Origin: Thermoleophilia bacterium
Lineage (GTDB): Bacteria; Actinomycetota; Thermoleophilia; BMS3ABIN01
DNA length: 54,562 bases
Assembly: GCA_041660545.1 (NCBI GenBank)
Contig: JBAZWE010000005.1
Location: forward strand, 1-54,562
Reading direction: 5' to 3'
A program made the translations under genes and the position numbers. The notes under the pieces were generated by a model that was given only the letters and a program-made list of their open reading frames with translations, was not told the origin of the DNA and made no database searches. Below are positions 3,052 through 41,498 of the stretch, one piece after another (position 1 is the stretch's first letter; each line of letters opens with the position of its first letter).

Positions 3052-3149
3052 GGGGGCGCAGGAACCGGTTGTTCCCGGCGGTCTGCAAAACCGTTCGCCT
3101 GTCTGAGATCCAGACAGAGAGTGGGTTCGACTCCCACGCGCTCCCTCCA
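3052..3149 (+). tRNA. Selenocysteine-type (8/5 fold) tRNA with anticodon GCA (Cys codons UGC/UGU) and discriminator U73; CCA encoded
   Basis: Hand fold. Acceptor 3052-3059 GGGGGCGC pairs with 3138-3145 GCGCTCCC (8 bp, one G-U). D stem 3061-3065/3071-3075 has a 5-nt loop. Anticodon stem 3077-3082/3090-3095 is 6 bp, with loop CTGCAAA (anticodon 3085-3087). Variable arm has a 7-bp stem 3099-3105/3111-3117. T stem 3121-3125/3133-3137 is 5 bp, with loop TTCGACT. T3146 is followed by CCA. Confidence 0.75.
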
Positions 3150-3180: not shown

Positions 3181-3621
3181 TTGAAGAAATTAATACTAAT
3201 CGCCATAATTCTGGTGTCTCTGGCCGGGGTAGCCGACTCCGGCTATGCCTTAAAGCAGCACTATGCTCCTGCTGATATTTCTTCCTGTGACGTCAATGAG
3301 ACCATAAGCTGTACGGCGGTCAACCAGAGTAAATATTCAGAGTTATTCGGCCTGCCGGTTGCAGGCATCGGGATTGCCGGGTACGTGACGATCGGTCTGC
3401 TTGCGGGCGCGGTCCTGTATAGAAAGTCTTCAGCGTCCGTGCTTCTCAATCTTTTGGCGGGAATGGCGATCGTCGCGCTGGCGGTCTCTTTATACCTTAC
3501 GTATATCGAGCTGTTCATACTTCATGCGGTGTGCCCGCTCTGCATGCTTTCGCTACTGCTTACAATAACCACGGCAACCCTTGCCATCCGCGCACAAATG
3601 CTGAATGCCAGAAAAGACTAG
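3181..3621 (+). CDS. Vitamin K epoxide reductase (VKOR)-family thiol-disulfide oxidoreductase, membrane protein
   Basis: TTG start 32 nt after the tRNA 3' end. Four hydrophobic helices, a loop Cys pair (SSCDVNETISC), the conserved S..FG.P segment (SELFGLPVAGIG), and CPLC (CxxC) at the start of the last helix. Confidence 0.8.
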   Translation: MKKLILIAIILVSLAGVADSGYALKQHYAPADISSCDVNETISCTAVNQSKYSELFGLPVAGIGIAGYVTIGLLAGAVLYRKSSASVLLNLLAGMAIVALAVSLYLTYIELFILHAVCPLCMLSLLLTITTATLAIRAQMLNARKD

Positions 3622-4548: not shown

Positions 4549-5952
4549 CTATTCTATGCCCATGTCCCTGCCTGTGACCCGCGCAAAGACCAGCGCTACA
4601 GTCCTGTACACCATGTGCGCCATTTTTGAGAACGGTGCGTATATGAACAGGAAGAGTACGCTTGCGAGGTGTATGAAATAAACAGTATAAGCCACCGGGG
4701 TATTGGCAACCCGTAAACCCCAGGCGAGAATGCCGGTAACTATAACCGTTGCCACGACACTGATCAGCAGCCAGTCAAAATATGCTCCGATCCCTATTTT
4801 TGCCGCGTGCTTGAAACGGTTTATCATTATCCAGCCGATGCCTATAAGGCCGGCGGCGGCGCTGACTGAGCCAATCCACTTTACAGGTACAGCATTGTTC
4901 CAGCCATATGGCGAGTGCTTGTGAAGTAGATACTCGCCGATCACGGAGATCGCGGTCGTCACGAACAGACCCAGGAATGCGTAAAAAATGAACATGTGCG
5001 ACACTTTCCTGTCCTCGGTCTCGTCACATTTGCCGAAGCGTTTGTGGGTGATGATCTCACCAAGTACCGGTCCCAGATTCCCTAGTCCGCTTCCCTTCAG
5101 GGTTCCCCCTTCACTTACCGCATGCGCGGATAGAAGCTTCCAGTATCTGCTGCTTCCCACGGCAAATGCCAGGATGGCAAAAAAGAATGCCAGTGTGAAT
5201 GTAATGTCAACCGCAGGTATGGGGATGAAGTTGGAATATATGATTTCTCCGCCAGTTTTTACATCCTGGACTATCTGGTGTCCGCTTCCATCAAGGATAA
5301 TGTTACCCTTTGAAGGATTTGTGAGATGCCCAAATTGGCTGATTACTCCCAGGAGAATCAGCACTGGTATGGCAACCATGAGTACTAGCGCGGCTGGACT
5401 TCCCACACCTTTGCCCAGGATTCCAGGCCACGAGAACCGGCTGATCGTCATTTTGGCGATTGCCTGCAATACCCGTCCGGGCTTGGCGCCGCGGGGGCAC
5501 TGGGCCACGCAGTCGCTGCACTGGTGACATAGCCATACGTCGGGGTCGCCCATTAGCTTGTCCTTGAGTCCCCACTGAGCCCACATCATTTCCTTGCGTG
5601 GGAACGGACTGTCGTCCGGGGTTAAGTTACATACCACGGAGCAGGTGGCGCACTGGTAACACTTTTTCAGATCTGTGCCGCCACCGTTGATGATCTCCTT
5701 GACGAATCCGACATCCGGTTTGATCAACATGGCCTCACGGACATCCGGTACATTTTCCGCAGTCACGCTAGTGGCCTCACTGGCCACTTGTGCTTCGGTC
5801 GCAGCGGTATCTCCCTCGGATAACTCGGAGGCATCACCCGCGACAGGCGTCTCGGCCGCAGTTACGGCTGTCTCTTCCGCCGTCGCATCGGCAGTTGCAT
5901 CATTGCCGGCGCCAGCGGTTTCTTCAGTCTTGTCCACAGTTTCATCCGCCAT
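4549..5952 (-). CDS. qmoC: Quinone-interacting membrane-bound oxidoreductase subunit C (HdrC-like FeS domain fused to HdrE/NarI-like membrane cytochrome b), with about 70-aa acidic N-terminal extension
   Basis: FeS motifs CYQCATCSVVC and CHQCSDCVAQCP are followed by about 6 TM helices. The gene follows qmoAB. AGGAGG lies 5 nt before ATG 5952. Confidence 0.9.
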   Translation of the reverse strand: MADETVDKTEETAGAGNDATADATAEETAVTAAETPVAGDASELSEGDTAATEAQVASEATSVTAENVPDVREAMLIKPDVGFVKEIINGGGTDLKKCYQCATCSVVCNLTPDDSPFPRKEMMWAQWGLKDKLMGDPDVWLCHQCSDCVAQCPRGAKPGRVLQAIAKMTISRFSWPGILGKGVGSPAALVLMVAIPVLILLGVISQFGHLTNPSKGNIILDGSGHQIVQDVKTGGEIIYSNFIPIPAVDITFTLAFFFAILAFAVGSSRYWKLLSAHAVSEGGTLKGSGLGNLGPVLGEIITHKRFGKCDETEDRKVSHMFIFYAFLGLFVTTAISVIGEYLLHKHSPYGWNNAVPVKWIGSVSAAAGLIGIGWIMINRFKHAAKIGIGAYFDWLLISVVATVIVTGILAWGLRVANTPVAYTVYFIHLASVLFLFIYAPFSKMAHMVYRTVALVFARVTGRDMGIE

Positions 5953-5961
5953 ACTATCCTC

Positions 5962-8346
5962 CTAGAATCCCTTGAACGGATTAGGTCCGAAGCTTTTAAG
6001 CTGCTCCGCGAAGTCATCCATTATCTTTGGCAGCTGGTCCCATTCATTCATGGCGAGCTGAACCTGCGTAACTCGCTCTGCTTCGAGCATCAAGCGGCTG
6101 AGTGTCTCCTGGACCTTGCCCAGGCGCTCATTCGCGGCCTTGCTGCCCTTGACGAAGTGACACTGATAGTCATCGTCGTAGCGGCAACCGATAAGCAGAA
6201 AGCCCTCGATTCCAGCTGAGAGAGCATCCGCGATCCAGACCAGGTTGGTCCCGCCAAGGCATCTCATGGTTATGAACCTGTAGAAGGGATTGGTCTGTAT
6301 CTTGTTCAGGCCGGCTATATCGAGTGCCGGGTAAGCATCGTTCTCGCATATCAGCGCGATGATCCGGGGTTTGCTGTCTTCCTCCGGGACCTTTATCGCT
6401 TTCATCTGGGAAGCGATCATATCGACGCTGTAGTTCTTGAAAGAGATAATCCGCTGCGGGCAGGCACCCATGCAGGTACCACAACGCCGGCAACGGCTCG
6501 TATTGGTCTTGGGAGTTCCCTTCTCGTCCTCATCGAGAGCGCCGAAGGGACATTCAACCGTACACCTGCGGCACTGTGTGCAGTTGGTGAAGTTGATCTC
6601 GGGAAAGCTCTCATCGCCGGATCGCGGATGAACCGCCTGTCCGCGCGAGGTGAGCTCGACACACTGGATCGCTTTAAGAGCCGCGCCGACGCCATCGTTG
6701 GCGGACTGCATTGCCGTCATTGGCGCCCGGACTGAGCCGGCTGCGTAGATGCCCGTACGTCTTGTCTCATATGGGAAACAGACGAAGTGTGAATCCGGGA
6801 AACCATATTTCAGATATGGCAGTTCGGGACCCTGTCTGTATACAAGGTTGAGCACTACCGGATCGGCGATAACTTCCTTGATGATACCGTCCTGGGTCTT
6901 GGTCTCCTTCCACTGCCCCACGTACTCCGGGGTCAGGTCGGTGACCTTTTCCGCACCCTCAGGAAGCATGTTGGTGACCATGCCGGTCGCGAGCACCAGC
7001 ATGTCGGCCTCGATGCGGACTTTTTCGCCGAGGATGGTGTTGTCGATCTCCAGGATTATATTTCCTGATGAGTCTTCCGTGATGCTGACGATCTCGCCCT
7101 TGGTCAGCATTACGCCCGGGTTGTTCTGGGCGGCCTTATAGAAGTTCTCATACAGGCCCGGGGTCCGCATGTCCTTGTATACGATATAGGCGCTGGCGTC
7201 CGGGTCGCTCTCAGTCACATACAGGGCCTGCTTGAGCGATGTCATGCAACAGACGGAAGAGCAGTAAGGCAGATGTTCCGGATCACGCTGTCCCGCGCAT
7301 TGCAGGAATGCGACCCTCTTGGCCTGCTGGCCATCTGACGGCTTGCTGATTGTTCCATTGTTTGCCGCGGCCATTTCTTCGACCTCGACGTTGGTTACAA
7401 CATTTTTGAACTTGCCATAACCAAGATGCCCGAGCTTGTCGGCATCGTAGGGTTTCCAGCCTATGGCCATGACGACGGAGCCGATCCTGTGTGTCTCGGT
7501 GCTACCGTTATGGCTTATCGTTGCGTCGTACTGACCTGGCGTGCCAGCGATGCTGTCTATGTGAGCTTCCATGAGCACGGTTATGTTTTCATGGCTCTGG
7601 ACTGCCGCGATCTTCTCATCTATATCCGGTGTCTTAACGTCCTCAAAAGGAGGTTTGTCCGGAAGGATCTTATACATTTTGCCTGCCCACCCGCCGAGTA
7701 CAGCTTCCTTCTCGGCAAGAATGACCTTGTAGCCGGCCTTGGCGGATTCCAGCGCGCTCGTAAGACCCGCCGCGCCGCCGCCGATAACCAGAACGGTTCG
7801 TTCTACCGCTTCGATAAACGGTTCAGGTGGTTCGGATTTCTGTGCCCTGACGATTCCCATGCGCAGATGATCCTCGGCCATCTCCTGGGTGTTCTCATTG
7901 ACAACCATCTTGGAGGATGCCTCAGCAGGCGCTTCAGCGGTTTCGGGTGCTGCCTCCGCAGGTGCTGCTTCGTCGCTGGCGGTCTCTGCAGGCGCTGCTT
8001 CAGATGCCTCCTGCGCCGGTACTTCTTCCAGGGCAGCCGGAAGCTGGCTCCAGACGATGTGTTCCCTGACATTGACGCGCTCAGTTATATATTGGGCCGG
8101 ATCGAAATCAAAGGTGTCACTGTTGACACGCGGCGAACAGGCCGCTATTACAATCTTGTTGACACCTTCGTTGTTGATATCATCCTTGATTACCTGCGCG
8201 CCTTCCTGGCTGCAAAGGAACGGCACGGTTTTGACTACCTCGATGCGATACTGGTTCTTTGCTATGTTTTCCAGTTTCTCGGTGTCGAGGGCCTCGCCGA
8301 TTCCACAGTCAGAGCATATATATACTCCGAGTTTAGGATCTGCCAT
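5962..8346 (-). CDS. qmoB: Qmo subunit B (HdrA-like FAD/FeS protein with MvhD-like C-terminus)
   Basis: GGGAAG dinucleotide fold, ferredoxin motifs CTQCRRCTVECP and CRRCGTCMGACP, 794 aa, AGGAGGT RBS. Lies between qmoA and qmoC. Confidence 0.92.
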   Translation of the reverse strand: MADPKLGVYICSDCGIGEALDTEKLENIAKNQYRIEVVKTVPFLCSQEGAQVIKDDINNEGVNKIVIAACSPRVNSDTFDFDPAQYITERVNVREHIVWSQLPAALEEVPAQEASEAAPAETASDEAAPAEAAPETAEAPAEASSKMVVNENTQEMAEDHLRMGIVRAQKSEPPEPFIEAVERTVLVIGGGAAGLTSALESAKAGYKVILAEKEAVLGGWAGKMYKILPDKPPFEDVKTPDIDEKIAAVQSHENITVLMEAHIDSIAGTPGQYDATISHNGSTETHRIGSVVMAIGWKPYDADKLGHLGYGKFKNVVTNVEVEEMAAANNGTISKPSDGQQAKRVAFLQCAGQRDPEHLPYCSSVCCMTSLKQALYVTESDPDASAYIVYKDMRTPGLYENFYKAAQNNPGVMLTKGEIVSITEDSSGNIILEIDNTILGEKVRIEADMLVLATGMVTNMLPEGAEKVTDLTPEYVGQWKETKTQDGIIKEVIADPVVLNLVYRQGPELPYLKYGFPDSHFVCFPYETRRTGIYAAGSVRAPMTAMQSANDGVGAALKAIQCVELTSRGQAVHPRSGDESFPEINFTNCTQCRRCTVECPFGALDEDEKGTPKTNTSRCRRCGTCMGACPQRIISFKNYSVDMIASQMKAIKVPEEDSKPRIIALICENDAYPALDIAGLNKIQTNPFYRFITMRCLGGTNLVWIADALSAGIEGFLLIGCRYDDDYQCHFVKGSKAANERLGKVQETLSRLMLEAERVTQVQLAMNEWDQLPKIMDDFAEQLKSFGPNPFKGF

Positions 8347-8348
8347 GT

Positions 8349-9638
8349 CTAGTTACCTCCTGACATCTCGACAGCATCGGCGGATTTTGGTACGCCACCG
8401 TTGCTCTGAATGCTCTTAAGTGCCGCTCCGGTGCCATCCTGCACCGATGTAGCTACATCGTCTGGCCTTCTTGCCACACCGCAGGCGTGCAGACCGGCGA
8501 CTTTTTGTTGTGAATCCATGAAGCCGTTGGCCTCGTATACAAGATCAGCCGGAAGATTGGCTCCCTTGGCCGCGGGCTCCATGCCAGCCGCCAGAACAAC
8601 CATGTCGAATGTAGCTTCAACCTTGCCGCCGCCGAGTATGTCCTCGACTGTGACTGTGACATCACCAGTTGCCGGGTCTTCCTCGATCTTGGCTACTTTG
8701 CCCTTTGTCATGGTGACGTTCTCATCCGCTTTTACCTGCATGAGGAAGTCCTCATACTTGCCTGCGGCGCGCAGATCGATGTAGAAGATCGTCGCCTTGC
8801 TGTCTTCGGGATAACAATCCCTCAAATAGGTAGCCTGCTTGAGAGAGGCCATGCAGCAGATGGAGGAACAGTAATCGAGATTGTTCTCATCGCGACTGCC
8901 GGCGCACTGGGCGAAAGCGATGTTTTTGACTTCCTTGCCATCTGAGGGCCTGAGAATCTTGCCCTGAGTCGGTCCATTGGGTGCGGCAAGACGCTCCATC
9001 ATCACGTTGGTGATGACGTTTTTCGCGACTCCGAAGTTGAGATTGTCGATCTTCGATGCATCGTACGGGTTCCATCCTGTAGCGAAGACAACACTGCTTA
9101 CATCGAACTCTACGGTTTTTGCCTGCATATCCAGATCTATGGCGCCATACTTGCATGCATCCACGCACTTCGTGCAGCCGGAGCCGCATGCATTTTTGTC
9201 CAGAACATAACGCATGGGGAAAGACATTTCGTGCGGCAGATAGATCGCCTTGGTCGTGTCCATCCCGTAGTTGAAGTCATTAGCGCGTTCTCCAGGACAT
9301 TCAGCCACGCAATCATTGCAGCAGGTACACTTCTCATTTACATAGCCCGGGTTCACCTGGACTGTGACCTTATAGTTTCCCTCGCTGCCGGAAATGCTCT
9401 TTACCTCTGACAGTGTGTGAAAGCTGATCTTGGGATTCTGCTTGATGCGCTTGAAGTTGATCTCCAAACCACAATATGGAGGGCAAAGCTTGGGAAAATA
9501 CTTGTGCAGCTGTGCAACCCGACCGCCAAGATAGGCATTCTTCTCAATGATGACGGCCTCGAGGCCCGCTTCCGCGGCCTCAACAGCGGCGGTTATACCG
9601 CTGATGCCTCCTCCTACTATTAAAACTTTGTCTGCCAT
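8349..9638 (-). CDS. qmoA: Qmo subunit A (HdrA-like flavoprotein)
   Basis: N-terminal VGGGISGITAA Rossmann motif and HdrA-like Cys motifs, 429 aa. First gene after aprA. GAGGAGG RBS. Confidence 0.92.
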   Translation of the reverse strand: MADKVLIVGGGISGITAAVEAAEAGLEAVIIEKNAYLGGRVAQLHKYFPKLCPPYCGLEINFKRIKQNPKISFHTLSEVKSISGSEGNYKVTVQVNPGYVNEKCTCCNDCVAECPGERANDFNYGMDTTKAIYLPHEMSFPMRYVLDKNACGSGCTKCVDACKYGAIDLDMQAKTVEFDVSSVVFATGWNPYDASKIDNLNFGVAKNVITNVMMERLAAPNGPTQGKILRPSDGKEVKNIAFAQCAGSRDENNLDYCSSICCMASLKQATYLRDCYPEDSKATIFYIDLRAAGKYEDFLMQVKADENVTMTKGKVAKIEEDPATGDVTVTVEDILGGGKVEATFDMVVLAAGMEPAAKGANLPADLVYEANGFMDSQQKVAGLHACGVARRPDDVATSVQDGTGAALKSIQSNGGVPKSADAVEMSGGN

Positions 9639-9744
9639 AACGTCCCTCCTCGTGAGACTGTAACGCTAGCGGCTATCCGTGATCCGTGATGGGCAGTGAG
9701 GCTTTTTGAGAACTTACTGCTCATAACGCATCACGGCATTGTGA

Positions 9745-9778
9745 GGGCGGGGCAAGCCTTTGAAGGCTTGCCCCGCCC
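9745..9778 (-). promoter_or_regulatory. Intercistronic GC-rich stem-loop in the aprA-qmoA spacer (no U-tract)
   Basis: Perfect inverted repeat GGGCGGGGCAAGCC (9745-9758) / GGCTTGCCCCGCCC (9765-9778). The 173-nt spacer also contains a second nested pairing: CCGTGATG 9685-9692 with CATCACGG 9729-9736, and GCAGT 9693-9697 with ACTGC 9716-9720. Confidence 0.6.
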
Positions 9779-9811
9779 GTTATTCTCAGGTCCTTACCTG
9801 GTCAAGTGGTT

Positions 9812-11812
9812 CTAGACCGGGGCCGGGGCTGCTACCAGCTCGACATACGGGACCTTCTTGTGCTCCCACGTGTCCGACTCCATGCTGTACTTGGAGTTGG
9901 TGAAGCACTTCCAGTTCTCGTCGTCGACGACCGGGAAGTCACCACGGTAGTAGTAACCGGGGTAGCGGGTCTCTTCACGGAAGTTGATGTGACGGGCATG
10001 CGCCTCTGCCGCCCAGATACGGTGCCAGTTCTCCCAGCAGCGAAGCAGATCGTGCAGATCCGCCGCGGCGAGCCTGGCGGCATCCTCTTTCAGGATGTCG
10101 ATCTTCTTAAGGCCCTCGGCCAGCAATGTACCGCTGGTCGTGTACCAGGTCGAAATACCACCGACATACTCATCCATGATCTTCATCAGGCGGAACTGCA
10201 GCATCCGCGGGCTGATGTAGTTCGGATTGACATCGATGTTCTTCGGCGAAGTCGTATAGGAGTTGTACTTGGCGTAGAGCTCCAGCGGCGCATACATCTC
10301 AGCCACCAGATCGTCCACGCTCTCCTTGACGGCAGGGGTGTAATCAGCGTGATCCATGACCCATGCAACCATAGACTTGCCGGCCATCCTGCCCTCGGCG
10401 TGCGAGCCGGAGGAGAACTTGTGACCGGAGGCGCCTACGACGTCACCAGACATGAACAGTCCGTTAACAGTCGACATGCGGTTGTAGCCCCAAGACCACT
10501 CTTCAGGAGCGCCAGGGATGTCGCCAGGACCGCTTACCCAGAAGCCGGCACAGCCAGCGTGTGAACCAAGCAGATACGGCTCGGACGGCATAAGCTCGGA
10601 CGGTACCTTGTCCGGCTCGACGTCCTGGGCGGCCCAGAGGCCGGCCTGCGCGATGGTCATGTCGAGGAAGTCTTCCCAAGCCTCTGCCTCGAGGTGCTTG
10701 AGCGCCTTCTCATCCATTGTCTCAGCCAGCTTGGCCATGGCCTTATCGGTGTGCATCATGATGGGACCGTTACCGGCCTTCATCTCGATCATGGCCGCGT
10801 GGTTACGCAGGTTGGTGCCCATCGGGTTGTCATAGGGGGCGAACTGCTCGTGGATGATGTCAGCGTGCTTGACGCAATAGTCCTCACCCAGGGCATTGGT
10901 CGCCTGTGCCTTGAAGAACAGGAACCAGGCGCCTACCGGACCGTAACCATCCTTGAAGCGCATCGGTACGAAGCGGTTTTCCATCAGGGTCAGCTCAGCG
11001 CCGGCCTGGATGCCCATAGCATAGCCTGATCCGGAGTTCCATACCGGGAACCATGCACGGCCCATGCCCTCGCCGACCGACCGCGGCCGGAAGACGTTTA
11101 CGGCACCGCCGGAAGCGTTGAGGACTGAATTCGCCCTGAAGACGAAGACCTTGTTCTCACGAACGCTGAAACCGATGGCGCCAGCTACACGGTTGGGCTC
11201 ATTGGAGTCCATGAGAAGCCTGGTGCAGTAGACACGCTCATACAGGTTATCAGCCATACCGGTAGCGGCTTTGTTGAGCTCCAGGGCCTTCTTGGCAACT
11301 TCGCCAACGATTGCCTTGTAAGACTCGCCATTGATCATGATCTGCCATTTACCGGAACGTACCGGAGTTCCGCCATCTTTCAGCGCCGGAGCGCCGGCGT
11401 CACGGGAAGCGATACCGTCCATGGAGTGGCCCTCGGCGTCTTTCTTCCAGATCGGGAGGCCCCACTCTTCAAACAGATGCACTGAATCATCCACGTAGCG
11501 TGCGAGATCCCAGGTAAGGTCCTCGCGGGTGATGCCCATAAGGTCGGAACGCACCATGCGGACATAGTCCATCGGGTCGTTGTCACCGATATAGGTGTTG
11601 ATGGCCGAGAGACCCTGAGCGACAGCGCCGCTTCTCTCAACTGCGGCCTTGTCGACCAATACTACCTTGAGGTTCTTGGGGTTAGCCCAACGGCAAGCCT
11701 CGAAGGCAGCGCCGGCGCCTGACATACCGCCGCCGAGAATCAGAATATCGCAATCCACCTCTTCAACGGCCGGCTTCTCAACAAACTGGAAGCTGTTAGT
11801 TTCTTTCTCCAT
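9812..11812 (-). CDS. aprA: Adenylylsulfate (APS) reductase alpha subunit
   Basis: FAD-binding N-terminus DILILGGGMSGAGAA, fumarate-reductase-family flavoprotein of about 666 aa, directly after aprB. ATG 11812 is preferred (AAGGAG 8 nt upstream). The ORF-track GTG 11818 sits 2 nt from the SD. Confidence 0.95.
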   Translation of the reverse strand: MEKETNSFQFVEKPAVEEVDCDILILGGGMSGAGAAFEACRWANPKNLKVVLVDKAAVERSGAVAQGLSAINTYIGDNDPMDYVRMVRSDLMGITREDLTWDLARYVDDSVHLFEEWGLPIWKKDAEGHSMDGIASRDAGAPALKDGGTPVRSGKWQIMINGESYKAIVGEVAKKALELNKAATGMADNLYERVYCTRLLMDSNEPNRVAGAIGFSVRENKVFVFRANSVLNASGGAVNVFRPRSVGEGMGRAWFPVWNSGSGYAMGIQAGAELTLMENRFVPMRFKDGYGPVGAWFLFFKAQATNALGEDYCVKHADIIHEQFAPYDNPMGTNLRNHAAMIEMKAGNGPIMMHTDKAMAKLAETMDEKALKHLEAEAWEDFLDMTIAQAGLWAAQDVEPDKVPSELMPSEPYLLGSHAGCAGFWVSGPGDIPGAPEEWSWGYNRMSTVNGLFMSGDVVGASGHKFSSGSHAEGRMAGKSMVAWVMDHADYTPAVKESVDDLVAEMYAPLELYAKYNSYTTSPKNIDVNPNYISPRMLQFRLMKIMDEYVGGISTWYTTSGTLLAEGLKKIDILKEDAARLAAADLHDLLRCWENWHRIWAAEAHARHINFREETRYPGYYYRGDFPVVDDENWKCFTNSKYSMESDTWEHKKVPYVELVAAPAPV

Positions 11813-11841
11813 ACTCACATCTCCTTATTTACCAATTTTAA

Positions 11842-12252
11842 TTAAGCAGTGAAGTTGAAGAAGCCGGGCTTCTTCAGTTCATCGAAGTTTGCTTCCGGCA
11901 TACCGGCATACGGATCGGTGATGCCTTCCGGACGCAGGTTGATCGGGAACTTGAAGCGCTTGAGTGTGCCATTGCGGAACTTTACGGTCCACATGATGGA
12001 ATCGGTACCCCTCATCGGGATAACGGAAGCACCAAGCGGAGCGAAGTCAGCGTAAGCGCGGACCTCAATAGCCTGCTGCGGGCAGATCTTGACACAGTTG
12101 TAGCACTCCCAGCACTGTTCCGGCTCCTGATTGTGCGCCTTCATTCTTTCTGTGTCCAGCGTCATCAGGTCGTGCGGGCAGATGTACATGCAAGCGGTCT
12201 TTTCCTGACCCTTGCAGCCATCGCATTTTTCTGTAATCACGAAACTAGGCAT
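11842..12252 (-). CDS. aprB: APS reductase beta subunit (2x[4Fe-4S])
   Basis: Starts MPSFV.. as in known AprB. Has CDGCKG...C.YICP and CWECYNCVKICP motifs plus the AprB-type C-terminal tail. The TTG 12264 of the ORF track abuts the SD and is rejected. Confidence 0.95.
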   Translation of the reverse strand: MPSFVITEKCDGCKGQEKTACMYICPHDLMTLDTERMKAHNQEPEQCWECYNCVKICPQQAIEVRAYADFAPLGASVIPMRGTDSIMWTVKFRNGTLKRFKFPINLRPEGITDPYAGMPEANFDELKKPGFFNFTA

Positions 12253-12281
12253 ATCGTTTTCCAACCTCCTTGATTTTGATA

Positions 12282-12307
12282 TTGCTGCCTAAACTGGTTT
12301 GCTGCCT
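12282..12307 (-). repeat. Tandem 9-mer (plus strand TTGCTGCCT; minus strand AGGCAGCAA) in the aprB 5' leader, 17-nt period
   Basis: Exact copies at 12282-12290 and 12299-12307, 30-55 nt upstream of the aprB start. Confidence 0.5.
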
Positions 12308-12393
12308 GTCCTGCACCCCCTCTCTCGGGATTATTTATTTCAAATCTGTCACTCTATAAATATGGGCATCAGCGCGAAGCCGACAGCCTCGAA

Positions 12394-13608
12394 TTAAACG
12401 CCTTCCGAGTACTTGTGAGTCTTGATCTCTACCTTCTCGGTAAGACCCTCATAATAAGCGCGCAGTATCGTCAGGACTTCCGGACGGCTGAAGTGGTCTG
12501 GCACATCGTCGCCTTCTGAAAGCATCTTGCGCAGCTTTGTACCTGAAAGCAGCATGCGGTCTTCCTTGCCATGGGGGCATGTGCGCATTGACGCCATGCC
12601 GTCGCACTTGGTGCAATAGAAAGTCCAGTCGATCTTGAGCGGCTTGGTTTCCAGTGCACCTTCGGGGATCAGGTCGAAGATGTGGTGCGCGTCGAAGGGG
12701 CCATAGTAATCGCCTACACCGGCATGGTCACGACCGACAATCAGGTGGCTGCAGCCATAATTCTGGCGGAAAAGGGCGTGGAGCAGAGCCTCACGCGGGC
12801 CGGCATAGCGCATGTCCAGCGGATAGCCGCCGACGGCGCAGGTGTCTTTCACAAAGTAATCCTCGATAAGGATATCGATGGCGTTCTGACGCACGTCTGA
12901 TGGAATATCACCGGGTTTCAGCTTGCCGAGGAGCATATGGATGAAGACGCCGTCACAAGTCTCGATGGCGATCTTTGCCAGGTATTCATGTGAGCGATGC
13001 ATCGGGTTACGTGTCTGGAAAGCGGCAACCGTGTTCCAGCCCTTCTCCTCGAAGATTGCCCGCGACTGTGCGGGGGTCAGGTAGATCTCGGGATACTCTG
13101 AAGGGAAGTTGGCCTGGGAAAGCACCTTGACCGGTCCGGCCAGGTTTACTTCCTCCTGGTTCATGACCATCGCCACTCCGGGATGCTCGATGTCGGTGGT
13201 CGTATAGACCGTATTGCACTCGTGCTCTTTGTCGATGGTGTATTTCTCGGTGACGGTCATGGTCGCCATGGTCTCGCCCGTCTCCTCGGAAACCAGGGCG
13301 ATCTCCTCGCCATCCTTGATACTGTCAGCCTGTCCCTGCGTGGTCGAGAGGGTGATAGGGATGGGCCAGAATGTGCCATCTGCCATGGTGAACTTGTCGC
13401 AGACGCCCTGCCAGTCGGCCTTGGTCATAAAACCTGTAAGCGGGGTGAAGCCGCCGATGCCCATCATAATAAGGTCGCCGACTTCGCGAGAGGAGATACG
13501 TACCTGCGTCAGGCTCTTGGCCTTTTCCTGCTCCGCCTCCAGCTGTGCCCCATCAAGCAGAAGCGGCATTAATTTCTTGTCTTTTCCGTGTGGATTAACC
13601 AAAGCCAT
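12394..13608 (-). CDS. sat: Sulfate adenylyltransferase (ATP sulfurylase)
   Basis: Motifs [11 protein letters not shown] and GRDHAGVG, 404 aa, AGGAGGG RBS. Confidence 0.95.
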
Positions 13609-13665
13609 TAGCGTGACCCTCCTGTTAGTTTTTTCCTTGTGTCATTCACTATCAGCACTCGCGCC

Positions 13666-14313
13666 TTAGCTGAGACCGAGCGTTGTTACGACGTTGGCGA
13701 ATATCTCATCGATGTTGCCGGTGCCGGTTACTGATTTTACGATGCCCTTCTTATCGTAGTAATCGATAAGTGGTGCAGTCTGCGCGGTGTATACCTCGAG
13801 CCGCTTCTGAATCGTCTCTTCCTTGTCATCATCCCTCTGATAGAGTTCGCCACCGCATTTGTCGCATTTTCCTTCCGTGGCGGGAGGGCTGAAATAGAGG
13901 TTATACATCTGACCGCAGTCTTTGCAGGTGCGACGGCCGGTAAGGCGTTTCATGAGGTCTTCGAGGGGGACATCGACGCTGAGAGCCGCATCGAGTGACA
14001 TTCCCAGTTTGTCGAGCATTTCATCCAGAGCTTCGGCCTGTGCTGTATTGCGTGGGAAACCGTCAAGAATGTAACCGTTTTTGCAGTCGTCCTCTTGCAG
14101 TCGTTCCTCGACCATGCCGAGTACCACGCTATCCGGAACCAGCTCACCCTTGTCCATATAAGACTTGGCTTCCTTGCCCAGATCAGTTCCAGCTCCTACG
14201 GCCGCACGCAAAAGATCACCTGTAGAGATCTGCGGCATCCCGTATTTTTCAATAAGCTTCTTTGCCTGCGTACCCTTGCCCGCACCTGGTGCTCCCAGCA
14301 GTACTAGTCTCAC
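13666..14313 (-). CDS. adk: Adenylate kinase (zinc-LID type)
   Basis: P-loop GAPGAGKGT and LID Cys knuckles CKDCG...CDKCG. GTG 14313 lies 5 nt after GGAGG, whereas the ORF-track TTG 14325 overlaps the SD. Only 57 nt upstream of sat. Confidence 0.93.
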   Translation of the reverse strand: MRLVLLGAPGAGKGTQAKKLIEKYGMPQISTGDLLRAAVGAGTDLGKEAKSYMDKGELVPDSVVLGMVEERLQEDDCKNGYILDGFPRNTAQAEALDEMLDKLGMSLDAALSVDVPLEDLMKRLTGRRTCKDCGQMYNLYFSPPATEGKCDKCGGELYQRDDDKEETIQKRLEVYTAQTAPLIDYYDKKGIVKSVTGTGNIDEIFANVVTTLGLS

Positions 14314-14855
14314 ACTTGCCTCCAATTTGATCGCAAGAATTTGGATTGACCATCAATCAGGCAAAATTATCCCGGTCAACCTTATCTATTTATAAGTCAT
14401 TTAAGACTGGAAGGACTTTTGCAGCGAGTAATACTATTTACTCCAGACTGCTTTTTCAACCGCTTAATCTGAACCGTTTAAGCATGATTTTCCAGCCAAG
14501 TCTGAAACGGTTTTTGAGCGTCATATACCGCTCATTCATGGTTTACTGAAACAACATACAGTCAAACTTGCGATGGTGTTGCTGCTGGTTCAGGCTGTGC
14601 CCTTGACTTCATGCATGCGTGCTTTTTTATTGGCACAACCCTGCTGGATACCACCGGGCGTATATTCTATACCGATGCTCGCCCGCGTTTCAAGAAGCAA
14701 ACCGGTGCTTTCTATTAGTCTTTCTTATTAGGCATATCAGGCAGAAATCACTCAATCGCCGGATTTTGTTCATCAGGTGCAATTCCCGGGGGAGGAAAGC
14801 AGTAATTTCTTGAAAATCCGTGCCTGAAAAGCAACATACCGCTACAGCAGGAGGC

Positions 14856-15879: not shown

Positions 15880-17157
15880 CTAGAACCTATTTATTTTATC
15901 CACGCCCATGTAATGTCTTAGCGCCTCCGGCACGGTGATAGAGCCATCTTCATTCTGATAGTTTTCAATGATGGCTGCAAACGTGCGCCCGACCGCCAGA
16001 CCGCTTCCGTTCAATGTATGGACGAATTTCGGTTTGCCCCCGTCGGTGGGCCGATATCGAATATTAAGGCGCCTTGCCTGAAAATCCATATACGTTGAGC
16101 AGGAAGATATCTCCTTGTAATCGTCATAGGACGGCAACCAGACTTCGATGTCGTAGGTCTTTGCCGAAGCAAAGCCCATGTCTCCCGTACAGAGCGCAAC
16201 GGTCCGGTAGGGCAGCTCCAGACGTTTGAGGATCTCTTCAGCGTCGGCGGTAAGTTTTTCAAGTTCGTCGGACGAAGTCTCAGGAAGTACGAACTTGACC
16301 AGTTCTACCTTGTTGAATTGATGCTGGCGTATCAAGCCGCGAGTGTCACGCCCGGCGGCGCCCGCTTCACGACGGAAGCTTGGCAGGTAGGCGGTTACAT
16401 GGATCGGCAGCTCTTCCTCTGCAAGCACCTCGTCGCGATAAATATTGGTGACGGGAACTTCGGCGGTCGGATTCAGGTAAAGGTCGTCATCCCGCAGTTT
16501 GTACATCTCCGCCTGGGCGAACTTTGAAAGCTGACCGGTACCGCGCATACTGTCACTGTTTACAAGGATAGGCGGGAAAAGTTCGGTGTAGCCATGTTCT
16601 TGCGTATGCAGATTGAGGAAGAAGTTGATCAGCGAACGTTCCAGCTTGGCCCCCATGCCTCGCAGCAGCGTAAAACGGGATTCGGCCACCTTGGCGCCCC
16701 GCTCCTGGTCGATGATGCCAAGATCGGCGCCCAGGTCCCAGTGTGCTTTCGCCTCGAAGTCGAATTTCGTCGGCTCTCCCCAGGTGCGAATCAATACATT
16801 GGCGCTCTCATCCGCGCCTTGTGGCACTTCAGGGAGCGGCGTATTGGGGAGGTCCAGGACTATGTCACTGAGTTGTATCTCGATTTCTCGCAGGACGATG
16901 TCTAAAGCCTTGATCTCCTCCCCTACTTTCTTCATGGCGACGATTTTCCCGGAAGCGTCTCCACCGGTTTTCTTCGATGAGGCGATTTCGTCAGAAACCT
17001 GATTGCGCAGCGCTTTCTTCTCTTCTACTTCGACGATGATCTCGCGGCGTTTTCTGTCGAGCTGTGCAAATTCATCAAGCGGCGCATCTATGCCTCTGCG
17101 CTGTAGCGCCTTCATTATTTCATCCGGCTCATTGCGGAGCCGTTTTATGTCCAGCAT
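15880..17157 (-). CDS. serS: Seryl-tRNA synthetase
   Basis: N-terminal coiled-coil arm (MLDIKRLRNEPDEI..) and class II core (..FRREAGAAGRDTRGLIRQHQF.., ..GSGLAVGRT..). ATG 17157 follows a GGAGAG SD. Confidence 0.95.
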   Translation of the reverse strand: MLDIKRLRNEPDEIMKALQRRGIDAPLDEFAQLDRKRREIIVEVEEKKALRNQVSDEIASSKKTGGDASGKIVAMKKVGEEIKALDIVLREIEIQLSDIVLDLPNTPLPEVPQGADESANVLIRTWGEPTKFDFEAKAHWDLGADLGIIDQERGAKVAESRFTLLRGMGAKLERSLINFFLNLHTQEHGYTELFPPILVNSDSMRGTGQLSKFAQAEMYKLRDDDLYLNPTAEVPVTNIYRDEVLAEEELPIHVTAYLPSFRREAGAAGRDTRGLIRQHQFNKVELVKFVLPETSSDELEKLTADAEEILKRLELPYRTVALCTGDMGFASAKTYDIEVWLPSYDDYKEISSCSTYMDFQARRLNIRYRPTDGGKPKFVHTLNGSGLAVGRTFAAIIENYQNEDGSITVPEALRHYMGVDKINRF

Positions 17158-17323
17158 GAATCTCTCCCTGGATCGATGGATTCTTCTTTCCGGCAACCTG
17201 ACGCCGGCTCGCTAAAGTCTATCGGAATTCGTGGTCCCCTTAAAAGAGGCCAGTCGGAATATTCACTTTTGAACAAGAGGCGCGAGCGGCTACAATGGAA
17301 TTAGGCAAAAAGGAGTCAATTCC

Positions 17324-20676: not shown

Positions 20677-20762
20677 GATTTATTTATTTCTGTTATCCTT
20701 GATTCTCAGTATTTTGTCTATGAATCATAACCTTAATTTAAAAAGAAAAGGAGGTGAAATAT

Positions 20763-20930
20763 ATGAGGAAATTAGCAATACTCGCCAGCGTTTGGCTGGT
20801 ATGCACAGCTTCGCTCGCTTTTGGCGCGGTGGCTTTCGGTGACGACCATCACGATGGAGATCACGATGGGGATCATCACAATACTCACTGCGAATACAAG
20901 CGCGGCCATCTGGTGTGCGACAACGACTAA
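20763..20930 (+). CDS. 55-aa secreted His/Asp-rich, two-Cys peptide (not in the ORF track because it is under 60 aa)
   Basis: ATG 20763 lies 5 nt after a near-perfect SD AAGGAGGTGA. Translation: MRKLAILASVWLVCTASLAFGAVAFGDDHHDGDHDGDHHNTHCEYKRGHLVCDND. It has a classical signal peptide followed by DHHDG/DHDG/DHH repeats and C..x9..C. Confidence 0.55.
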   Translation: MRKLAILASVWLVCTASLAFGAVAFGDDHHDGDHDGDHHNTHCEYKRGHLVCDND

Positions 20931-21264
20931 GTGGTTAAGAAATCATTGGCAGGGGAGAACCCCGGAACGCCATCATATTTTACTTCGCGTTGAGAGTTCG
21001 AGTTGTTACAGAGTTACGAGTGCGGATAGTCGGGTTGAAGAGTTGCAGCAGTAGACGGGTTTGTAAAGCTGGCTGATTTGCATGAATTGGCTGGTGAAAA
21101 GTGCTGCATTCTTCTCTGGCTTGCCGGACGATAGCTTCTTAAATTTTTTTGACTTAGCGCGATTAGTTCCACAAATATTTTCGGCGTTTTGAAGACTCCC
21201 TTGCCAGTGCCTTCAACTCCGTTCTACATGCACCCTCCGCCCGCAATTATCGCTAAGACCCAGT

Positions 21265-39890: not shown

Positions 39891-41498
39891 TTACCCCAGG
39901 CTCCCCCGGATCTTTCCCAGGCGGCAAATCCACCCGGATACCAGATCCCGGTCATCATTCTCCCCGCTCCACTCATCGCTGCCCGCGGTGAACTGCCTCA
40001 TCATGGGTTGAAGTGTTTCCAGTAAGACATGATAACGGCGGTCATCTGCTGAAGACGGACCGATTCCTACACCAAGGTGCCTGGAAACCTCGTCCATGTC
40101 GGAAGATAACTGAGATATGAGAGGCTCGGGCAGGTGTTGAGATGCGGTCTCCATATTGGCGTAGCGTGCGGCCTTTGCCATGTCTGCCCTCATGCCGGGG
40201 TATAGCTGAAGCAGGCGGCTTACGGCCTCGTCCCCACCGCGCCGGGCAACTTCGGCAAGTCCTCGTCCTGTACCGATAAACTCAGGCGGTAAACCGATTG
40301 AATAGAGTGCACCGGTGAAACTGATAGCCCGGGGCAGGTTCGTGGCCCCCGTGGTTTTGATGGCGGCGATCCCTTTTGCGATTTCCTCATCGGCGATCTC
40401 TTTTGCCAGCTTGTCCGGCTGTGCCGCCGCACGCGCATAGCCCACAGCGCTCTTTCTCGCGAGGCGGTCACGCTGTCTGGGGATAAGGTCCGATAGAGCG
40501 ATGACAATTGGTAAAAGTTCGTTAAAGCTTTCGAGATATGGCCTTGAAAAAATGCCGATCAGCGATGTCAGTTCATCTCGCTGTCCGTTACCGAAAGCAA
40601 GTGGCGGCGCACCTGGTAGCAAATCACGCGCCTTCAAGGCCACCTGCCGCGCCGCTTCACTGTCACAGTCATAGCGCATGCCGGACTGCACGGTTACTGT
40701 TCTTATACCTGCGAAATCGGAAGTCAGACGTTCGAAATTGTCGAGGCTTACGTGCCCGCGAAAAGGCAGCACGCCACCGCCGAAAATCGGATATATCTTA
40801 ACGCCATGCTCATTTCCCGTAGCACAGCAATCCGAGATGGCGACCTTGACCGCGAGCACGGAGGCAACCATACCGTAAATCATCGCCGAGTCACTGCGTC
40901 CAAGCATTATCCGCAAATCATCCGCATCATAACCGGCTGTCCTGGCTCGCTTTATATACTCTGCCGTCAGGCGGCCCGCCGAGAGCAGTTCAGGCACTTC
41001 TTCTATCAGAGGAATGACCTGGACGGCATTGGGATCGCGTGAGATACCGAACTCCTTATGCCCCAGCTCCGTGACATCCTGGATGCGGCGACGCACATCC
41101 AGCAATTCCGAAGCTGTCTCCACCATAGGCACCACGACCTCCCGAATGGTGCCCCTGCTTCCTGAAGATGAAAGCTGGTAATTGGACTCGATCACGGACA
41201 TGATGGCCATCAACTGGTGAAAGACCGTCTCCTGCGTGGCGCTGGGAATTCGTGGCGTGACCGCGACATCTTCACCGGGGATCAGACCCCTCTCCGTCAA
41301 CCCCAGAGCGATCTCGGCCGTCTGGTGATAAGGGGTCAGCTTGCCCTCGTAATCGACCATTATCTCCTCAAGGCCCAGTCCGATCGGCTGCTGTGTCAAG
41401 GCGTCTATGGCTTCCCGAGGTTCATCGCGCACCGGGACGTAACGCGAGGCGCTGTCCGGATGTTGCGTCATCATCGTCGCGGGTATAAAGCGGCCCAT
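39891..41498 (-). CDS. ppcA: Archaeal-type phosphoenolpyruvate carboxylase
   Basis: 535 aa. The N-terminus ..IPATMMTQHPDSA.. and ..EIMVDYEGKLTPYHQ.. match my recollection of the PpcA family (..MSTQHPDN.., ..W.DFEGK..). It is unlike the roughly 900-aa bacterial Ppc. Confidence 0.8.
   Translation of the reverse strand: MGRFIPATMMTQHPDSASRYVPVRDEPREAIDALTQQPIGLGLEEIMVDYEGKLTPYHQTAEIALGLTERGLIPGEDVAVTPRIPSATQETVFHQLMAIMSVIESNYQLSSSGSRGTIREVVVPMVETASELLDVRRRIQDVTELGHKEFGISRDPNAVQVIPLIEEVPELLSAGRLTAEYIKRARTAGYDADDLRIMLGRSDSAMIYGMVASVLAVKVAISDCCATGNEHGVKIYPIFGGGVLPFRGHVSLDNFERLTSDFAGIRTVTVQSGMRYDCDSEAARQVALKARDLLPGAPPLAFGNGQRDELTSLIGIFSRPYLESFNELLPIVIALSDLIPRQRDRLARKSAVGYARAAAQPDKLAKEIADEEIAKGIAAIKTTGATNLPRAISFTGALYSIGLPPEFIGTGRGLAEVARRGGDEAVSRLLQLYPGMRADMAKAARYANMETASQHLPEPLISQLSSDMDEVSRHLGVGIGPSSADDRRYHVLLETLQPMMRQFTAGSDEWSGENDDRDLVSGWICRLGKIRGSLG

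Follow-up and report, generated by a model that had tools for sequence, protein, structure and literature searches.

The tRNAs described as selC* tRNACys, which Vargas-Rodriguez and co-workers reportedly renamed tRNAReC in RNA Biol in 2018, form a rare bacterial class that has been known since 2016–2018. In their members, a tRNASec-like body comes with U as the discriminator base (U73), and the anticodon is either GCA or UCA (Mukai et al., NAR 2017, PMC5389517), and the class is also treated in PMC7609411; U73 and the GCA anticodon together constitute the identity set of the cysteinyl-tRNA synthetase, CysRS (PMC5389517). Genes for selC* tRNACys were found in anaerobes with complete selABCD (PMC5389517), and the hosts named in the passages of that paper cited here are Clostridia, Bacilli, Thermodesulfobacteria, Thermodesulfovibrio and delta-proteobacteria. 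The member from Desulfotomaculum nigrificans is, according to the cited passages of PMC11415595 and PMC13582414, charged by CysRS, delivered by SelB and not by EF-Tu, and furnishes UGA-to-Cys recoding, with Cys placed at UGA-SECIS sites. In the model set out in the cited passage of PMC11415595, the class tRNA reads UGA-SECIS with Cys, and not UGC/UGU. The role of the class in its native hosts, and the division of labor with tRNASec, are described as unclear (PMC13582414). A 2026 survey delimits the class by a length of at least 80 nt, a UCA or GCA anticodon and a U discriminator (PMC13582414). For the delta-proteobacterial members, termed 8/4 and accompanied by selB* and cysS*, a dedicated elongation factor has been proposed, and the arrangement of tRNA and selB* is described only for Syntrophobacterales and Desulfobacterales (PMC5389517).

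The stretch of DNA analyzed here, 54,562 nt in its entirety and hereafter called the window, carries a tRNA gene whose sequence argues strongly for membership in this described class, and which is not a new kind of gene. The lineage is uncultured and carries the NCBI labels Thermoleophilia, Gaiellales or Actinobacteria; Thermoleophilia is a class of Actinomycetota. Scanning the window, ARAGORN called a tRNA-Cys(gca) at exactly 3052–3149(+), 98 nt in length. A search of the whole window against Rfam returned the tRNA-Sec family (RF01852) over 3052–3145, scoring 51.1 bits where the gathering threshold is 47 (E = 2e-7); this match is marginal, a same-clan match of lower score was suppressed at the same place, and the alignment flags the D arm for gaps and non-standard pairs. 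Both programs recovered the gene that the original prediction had described. The minimum free energy fold is stable relative to shuffled sequences (−45.8 kcal/mol, z = −3.1) and draws the anticodon stem as 4 bp, a bulge and 3 bp; we dropped this version of the stem for one of 6 bp, the former being ruled out by covariation at pair 26:44. Upstream of the tRNA, no match to a sigma-70-type promoter was found, a consensus that may not fit an actinobacterial promoter. The parts of the gene are collected in Table 1.

Table 1 Parts of the tRNA gene and its neighbor in the window, and SelB-family genes found 3′ of related tRNAs at other loci
Feature	Position	Strand	Evidence
tRNASec-like tRNA-Cys gene (GCA, U73, encoded CCA), 98 nt	3052–3149	+	ARAGORN, RF01852, fold, covariation
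Acceptor stem, 5′ strand, 8 bp (1–8:87–94), partner 3138–3145	3052–3059	+	Fold
Single-nt linker before the D arm	3060	+	Fold
D arm: 5-bp stem GGAAC/GUUCC and 5-nt loop	3061–3075	+	Fold; stem invariant in 16 sequences
Anticodon arm: 6-bp stem, loop CUGCAAA, GCA at 3085–3087	3077–3095	+	ARAGORN, 26:44 covariation
Long variable arm: 7-bp stem and 5-nt loop	3099–3117	+	Fold, pairs 51:63 and 49:65
T arm: 5-bp stem GUGGG/CCCAC, loop UUCGACU, unbulged	3121–3137	+	Fold; homologue alignment
Acceptor 3′ strand (3138–3145), discriminator U (U95, at 3146) and encoded CCA	3138–3149	+	Fold
VKOR-family membrane thiol oxidoreductase gene	3181–3621	+	Pfam PF07884, E = 9e-28; 31 nt downstream of tRNA
SelB-family gene 3′ of tRNA, Nitrospirota	L133:2455–4171		
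SelB-family gene 3′ of tRNA, Nitrospirota	L142:1–1636		
SelB-family gene 3′ of tRNA, Nitrospirota	L145:2128–4141		
SelB-family gene 3′ of tRNA, Nitrospirota	L148:7311–7733		
SelB-family gene 3′ of tRNA, Nitrospirota	L151:4599–6639		
SelB-family gene 3′ of tRNA, Nitrospirota	L180:2386–4422		
SelB-family gene 3′ of tRNA, Nitrospirota	L204:5624–7631		
SelB-family gene 3′ of tRNA, Chloroflexota	L158:533–2589		SelB winged-helix domains

Sixteen distinct homologues of the window tRNA were assembled through the neighboring YkgJ/CxxCxxCC protein and through pattern scans of species-representative genomes and metagenomes. The genome pattern scan covers the matches listed, and tallies of homologues and of class members are therefore lower bounds; the matches listed in that scan include no named isolates of, for example, Thermodesulfovibrio or D. 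nigrificans. Placed on a cloverleaf with a 6-bp anticodon stem, 98.6% of the pair cells of the 16 homologues are standard, versus 43–53% when the partners are slid by 1–3 columns. Five pairs changed on both sides: 7:88, 8:87, 26:44, 49:65 and 51:63. Pair 7:88 of the acceptor stem is G-C or A-U, and in the variable stem pair 51:63 is U-A in nine homologues and C-G in seven, with several pair types at 49:65. The exchange among G-U, G-C and U-A at 26:44 sets the anticodon stem at 6 bp (26–31:39–44). In the T stem, pair 70:86 is G-C or G-U, and the remainder of the T arm does not vary. Likewise unvarying among the homologues are the GCA anticodon, the CUGCAAA loop, the T loop and the CCA end, and U73 (the U at 3146) is constant across all 17 aligned sequences. 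The window tRNA gene is thus real, conserved and selected for tRNA structure; such paired and compensatory evolution speaks against a chance fold and against a pseudogene, which, together with anything unforeseen, retains only the probability that the readings discussed below leave over. The anatomy originally read from the window (8-bp acceptor stem, 5-bp T stem, 6-bp anticodon stem, variable arm of 7 bp and 5 nt, GCA, U73 and CCA) is borne out by ARAGORN, by the fold and by the pairing in the homologues.

The eighth acceptor pair, 8:87, is C-G in 8/16 homologues, U-A in 3/16 and U-G in 1/16; in the other four it is mismatched, as C.A, C.U, U.U and C.C. Covariation at this pair supports the 13-bp acceptor/T branch that the original prediction had proposed, and the four mismatched homologues indicate that the branch is favored, not obligatory, in the subfamily. 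At the homologue L122:11232–11329(−) / L123, ARAGORN finds a tRNA, and no gathering-level Rfam match to tRNA or tRNA-Sec was obtained; covariance-model annotation can miss or mislabel genes of the tRNAReC class.

Set against the published descriptions, the window tRNA carries every sequence-level mark of the class: the 8-bp acceptor stem, the 6-bp anticodon stem, the long variable arm, U73 and GCA, together with detection by the tRNA-Sec covariance model, through which the class was discovered (51.1 versus 47 bits), and a length of 98 nt where the survey rule asks for 80 nt or more. In its tRNASec-like body, U73, GCA and match to the tRNA-Sec model, it is alike to the D. nigrificans-type selC* tRNACys, and the suspected kinship with the Sec-mimicking tRNA-Cys of Mukai, Soll and co-workers is thereby upheld. 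The setting is similar as well, the host being an anaerobic sulfur-metabolizing bacterium in which an accessory gene stands beside a presumed normal tRNA-Cys. Two points differ. Unlike the hosts reported in 2017, the window lineage is labelled Thermoleophilia/Actinomycetota, a phylum absent from the host list in the cited passages of that paper (PMC5389517), and unlike the reference selC* tRNACys, the window subfamily has a gene for a VKOR-family protein as its conserved downstream neighbor.

The delta-proteobacterial (8/4) selC* tRNACys of Desulfococcus biacutus and Desulfomonile tiedjei likewise mimic tRNASec in shape and have U73 and an acceptor stem of 8 bp. However, their T stem is of 4 bp with an A51a bulge, whereas that of the window tRNA is of 5 bp and unbulged, which completes the 8/5 branch of 13 bp. 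The first pair is A1:U72 in the delta-proteobacterial tRNAs and G1:C72 in the window tRNA, the anticodon is UCA in the former and GCA in the latter, and selB*, with or without cysS*, lies immediately downstream where the window has VKOR. The 5-bp T stem, the G:C first pair and the lack of selB*/cysS* downstream rule out assignment of the window tRNA to this subtype.

The shared features with bacterial tRNASec (RF01852) are the 8/5 branch of 13 bp, the 6-bp anticodon stem, the long variable arm and the encoded CCA. These, together with the Rfam match, would also suit a genuine tRNASec that bears a sense anticodon, is serylated by SerRS and converted by SelA, and is then brought by SelB to selected UGC/UGU codons that precede a SECIS. 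Such tRNASec(GCA) occur in nature, for example in Aeromonas salmonicida (PMC11415595), and in allo-tRNAs a long variable arm with G73 or U73 may permit recognition by SerRS (PMC5389517). Moreover, at least about 33 Burkholderiales loci among the matches listed encode a GCA tRNA of 97 nt with a Sec-like body, and these look like tRNASec reading a Cys codon. All of these counterparts, however, have the G73 of bacterial tRNASec and of the SerRS/SelA pathway, and 24 of the ~33, among the matches listed, adjoin a full-length EF-Tu/SelB-like gene; this combination contrasts with the U73 of the window tRNA and argues against Sec at UGC/UGU. Within the window subfamily, the CysRS identity set of U73 and GCA is invariant, neither selA nor selB is adjacent, and the D arm (5-bp stem, 5-nt loop, 1-nt linker) differs from that of tRNASec (6-bp stem, 4-nt loop, 2-nt linker). 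Acceptance of Cys, not of Ser to be converted to Sec, is the prediction for this tRNA, and we consider a true tRNASec very improbable. The invariance of U73 also makes unlikely one of the two functions originally proposed for the gene, insertion of Sec at UGC/UGU codons. The Burkholderiales GCA/G73 hosts comprise Rubrivivax, Piscinibacter, Rhodoferax and beta-proteobacterial metagenome-assembled genomes (MAGs); examples of the tRNAs are L128:4329–4425, L130:7505–7601 and L202:6483–6576.

With canonical bacterial tRNACys(GCA), the window tRNA has in common the GCA anticodon, U73 and an anticodon loop ending in GCAAA. Canonical tRNACys is a class I tRNA of ~74 nt, with a 7/5 branch, a 5-bp anticodon stem and a variable loop of 4–5 nt; the window tRNA, by comparison, is of 98 nt, with a class II-like variable arm and an 8/5 branch. 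A tentative case can nevertheless be made for an additional tRNA-Cys of ordinary function despite its odd shape, which would be charged by CysRS, delivered by EF-Tu and used at UGC/UGU in bulk translation, and maybe co-expressed with VKOR from one promoter. The invariant U73 and GCA, the lack of a SelB-like gene nearby and the tight same-strand linkage to a housekeeping-type gene, VKOR, with no terminator in between, would all fit; so would the mismatches at 8:87 in 4/16 homologues, by which some members may present a 7-bp acceptor helix, and the finding that in E. coli EF-Tu functions with other tRNAs of non-canonical shape (8/4, 9/3) (Mukai et al., PMC5389517). Five lines of evidence stand on the other side: i) with a 1-nt linker, an unpaired nucleotide 8 would bulge out as an additional residue where the acceptor and T helices meet, ii) covariation between C-G and U-A at 8:87 indicates that the pair is selected, iii) the long variable arm and the 6-bp anticodon stem have no known purpose in such a tRNA, iv) the closest characterized relative is reported, in the cited passages of PMC11415595, as not interacting with EF-Tu, and v) relatives of the window lineage manage without the gene. 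Overall, we regard an ordinary tRNA-Cys as possible, if rather unlikely.

The last of these points follows from the genomic setting. ARAGORN places minus-strand tRNA-Ser(cga), tRNA-Arg(acg) and tRNA-Ser(gct) genes just upstream of the window tRNA, and 4549–14325(−), beside it, is occupied by the complete dissimilatory sulfate reduction block adk-sat-aprB-aprA-qmoA-qmoB-qmoC. Around the tRNA, the DNA of two loci, L160 and L217, matches the window at 81–86% identity. In three close relatives, L124, L125 and L126, the order adk-sat-apr-qmo-ykgJ-VKOR-tRNASer/Arg-tadA is retained without the Sec-shaped tRNA, and an unfiltered search of these three with the covariance model of the family gave no decayed tRNA remnant. 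Assemblies that carry the tRNA include JBAZZU01, JBBAAB01, JAGVMV01, JAJYIM01 and the ERZ27233560 bin, and GCA_054641755.1 is a relative lacking it. The window tRNA is thus an accessory gene, inserted between the tRNA-Ser/Arg cluster and VKOR, beside sat-aprBA-qmoABC; syntenic relatives lacking it make the gene dispensable, and its dispensability in close relatives means that a regular tRNA-Cys must exist elsewhere in the lineage. None of selA, selB, selD, selC, cysS, a canonical tRNA-Cys gene or an EF-Tu/SelB-like ORF was found within the 54.5-kb window, nor does any of selA, selB, selD, selC or cysS adjoin any of the 16 subfamily tRNAs. A convincing TGA-interrupted ORF that would mark a selenoprotein gene was likewise not found in the window.

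Several other features of the window are recorded here. A tadA-like deaminase gene at 1939–2538(−) adjoins the tRNA-Arg(ACG) gene at 2456–2532(−), its expected substrate, and is homologous to a PF00383 gene at L122:11836–12285. The ORFs 1015–1779 and 1939–2538 overrun tRNA genes, so that their true starts must lie further in. All named top matches of GatB are from Thermoleophilia, Gaiellales or Actinobacteria, and the next-closest relatives of the neighboring YkgJ, at ~55% identity, are from Nitrospirota, a discrepancy hinting that the sulfate-reduction block, from adk to qmoC, may have been transferred laterally. The serS gene is at 15880–17196(−). Two intergenic gaps of 530–590 nt, 14326–14855 and 20677–21264, have no gene or Rfam match, and an archaeal-type PEP carboxylase (PF14010) is encoded at 39891–41498.

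Using a covariance model of the subfamily, we collected further U73/GCA tRNAs, of which at least about 40, among the matches listed, have the layout of the window tRNA: an 8-bp acceptor stem, a 1-nt linker, a 5-bp D stem with a loop of 3–5 nt, a 6-bp anticodon stem, a long variable arm, a 5-bp T stem, U73 and CCA. Their hosts are mostly Nitrospirota/Thermodesulfovibrionales, with Ammonifex, Desulfitispora, Chloroflexota and Ca. Solincola also represented, and the 1-nt linker is common to 56/65 aligned class members. The eighth acceptor pair in this wider class is A-U in 37 tRNAs, C-G in 7, G-C in 3 and U-A in 3, counts that come from a model-fitted alignment and so lean towards structure; read with that leaning in mind, the covariation would further support the 8-bp acceptor stem. 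Directly downstream of the tRNA and on the same strand, a SelB-family gene is present at no fewer than eight loci, seven of them from Nitrospirota/Thermodesulfovibrionales and one from Chloroflexota (Table 1), which, at the level of the class, independently supports a functional link to SelB. Relatives of the Chloroflexota protein are annotated as selenocysteine-specific elongation factor, and a search with this protein for a Thermoleophilia SelB returned Chloroflexota SelB sequences only. The tRNA–selB pairs at L133 and L145 are two of one MAG (VGWY01).

Other matches lie at the margin of this class. In a Chloroflexota MAG, the gene after a related tRNA encodes a TusA-DsrE fusion of the sulfur-relay family (L212:2979–3685). 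Ten Acidobacteriota loci (L127, L138, L149, L152, L177, L206, L214, L231, L236 and L244) carry long-variable-arm GCA tRNAs with a GGCCGGT acceptor, which resemble the allo-tRNAs of Mukai 2017. A loose pattern, CTGCAAAN{24,44}GGTTCRANTCC, gave at least 120 matches in viral contigs; these are unrelated and were set aside.

In place of SelB, the window subfamily has VKOR. No terminator-like site was found between the window tRNA and the VKOR gene, and the two are likely co-transcribed. A VKOR gene follows the tRNA in the window and at L122, L129, L160, L217, L238, L249–L255 and L257, amounting to at least 13 subfamily members, with a spacer of 25–70 nt and a ribosome-binding site of its own. The pairing is kept across at least four wider contexts, and in some of these contigs the other neighbors are unrelated and include Mrr, LysR with a solute-binding protein, and a thiazole kinase; outside the window subfamily, no tRNA–VKOR linkage was found. 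At L248, a truncated and decayed VKOR remnant follows the tRNA, and L173 and L222 are the only subfamily members in which the tRNA is present without VKOR. An exact-protein match to the window VKOR was not found. We also considered whether VKOR is itself a selenoprotein or has unusual Cys positions, and rejected this idea: the four conserved Cys are encoded by ordinary Cys codons in every homologue, and VKOR has no in-frame TGA.

The persistence of this adjacency, with its short spacer, the ribosome-binding site and no terminator, and the VKOR remnant at L248 raise the question of whether the tRNA-like element mainly serves VKOR, as a 5′ leader that is processed, as a carrier of the promoter or as an element sensitive to charging, or else marks an old integration site, with little or no decoding. 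The two genes do occur apart, the tRNA without VKOR at L173 and L222 and VKOR without the tRNA at L124–L126; the ordinary Cys codons of VKOR and its lack of an in-frame TGA are against such a role too, as is purifying selection, which acts on all five helices and on both the anticodon and T loops, as well as on U73 and the encoded CCA. We hold a VKOR-serving element to be improbable. A related and doubtful view keeps the tRNA a Sec-shaped tRNACys but has it uncoupled from SelB, forming a two-gene unit with VKOR in the window lineage. It is motivated by a tRNA–VKOR linkage that outlasts changes of context, by the fact that no sel gene was seen and by the 4/16 homologues without the eighth pair. 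If so, the tRNA could be a leader that ties VKOR expression to the charging or processing of Cys-tRNA, or it could be a dedicated Cys donor for a factor other than EF-Tu and SelB.

Taken together, a functional, Cys-accepting tRNA of the tRNAReC class that acts through CysRS, SelB and UGA-SECIS is the reading we favor, with a probability of roughly 55%, by analogy to characterized members. Modelled on the D. nigrificans tRNA, the mechanism would begin with CysRS, which would charge the window tRNA with Cys by virtue of U73 and GCA. The acceptor/T helix of 13 layers would make the product a poor ligand of EF-Tu and a ligand of SelB, and SelB would then bring the Cys-tRNA to UGA codons with a downstream SECIS hairpin. 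There, the GCA anticodon would decode UGA by a tolerated wobble mismatch, and Cys would be placed at positions normally taken by Sec, for example as a backup under selenium scarcity. With the 54.5-kb window devoid of sel genes, it is analogy that brings SelB into this scheme, and the non-standard decoding system that the original prediction read from the gene is a candidate for this genome. The 8:87 mismatch in 4/16 homologues weakens the argument from EF-Tu exclusion for those members. The linkage to VKOR instead of selB and the occasional loss of the eighth pair are the two oddities of the subfamily relative to the tRNAReC mechanism. Of the original alternative of a Cys-tRNA shaped for a SelB-like factor, the factor would agree with the published class model; the codon would not, as that model has UGA-SECIS in place of UGC/UGU.

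Natural examples of programmed Cys/Sec ambiguity are few, and tRNAReC-type tRNAs belong to them. The window extends the class to an uncultured sulfate-reducing Actinomycetota lineage, labelled Thermoleophilia. Possibly new elements are the phylum of the host, the tRNA–VKOR module and the fact that near relatives differ in whether they have the gene. Gain and loss of the gene between close relatives provides natural pairs of genomes with and without it for comparison of selenoproteomes. The linkage of tRNA and VKOR is specific to the lineage and takes the place of the tRNA–selB linkage of Nitrospirota and Chloroflexota members. Lastly, missed or mislabelled tRNAReC genes matter when UGA-containing genes of such genomes are translated as encoding Sec.
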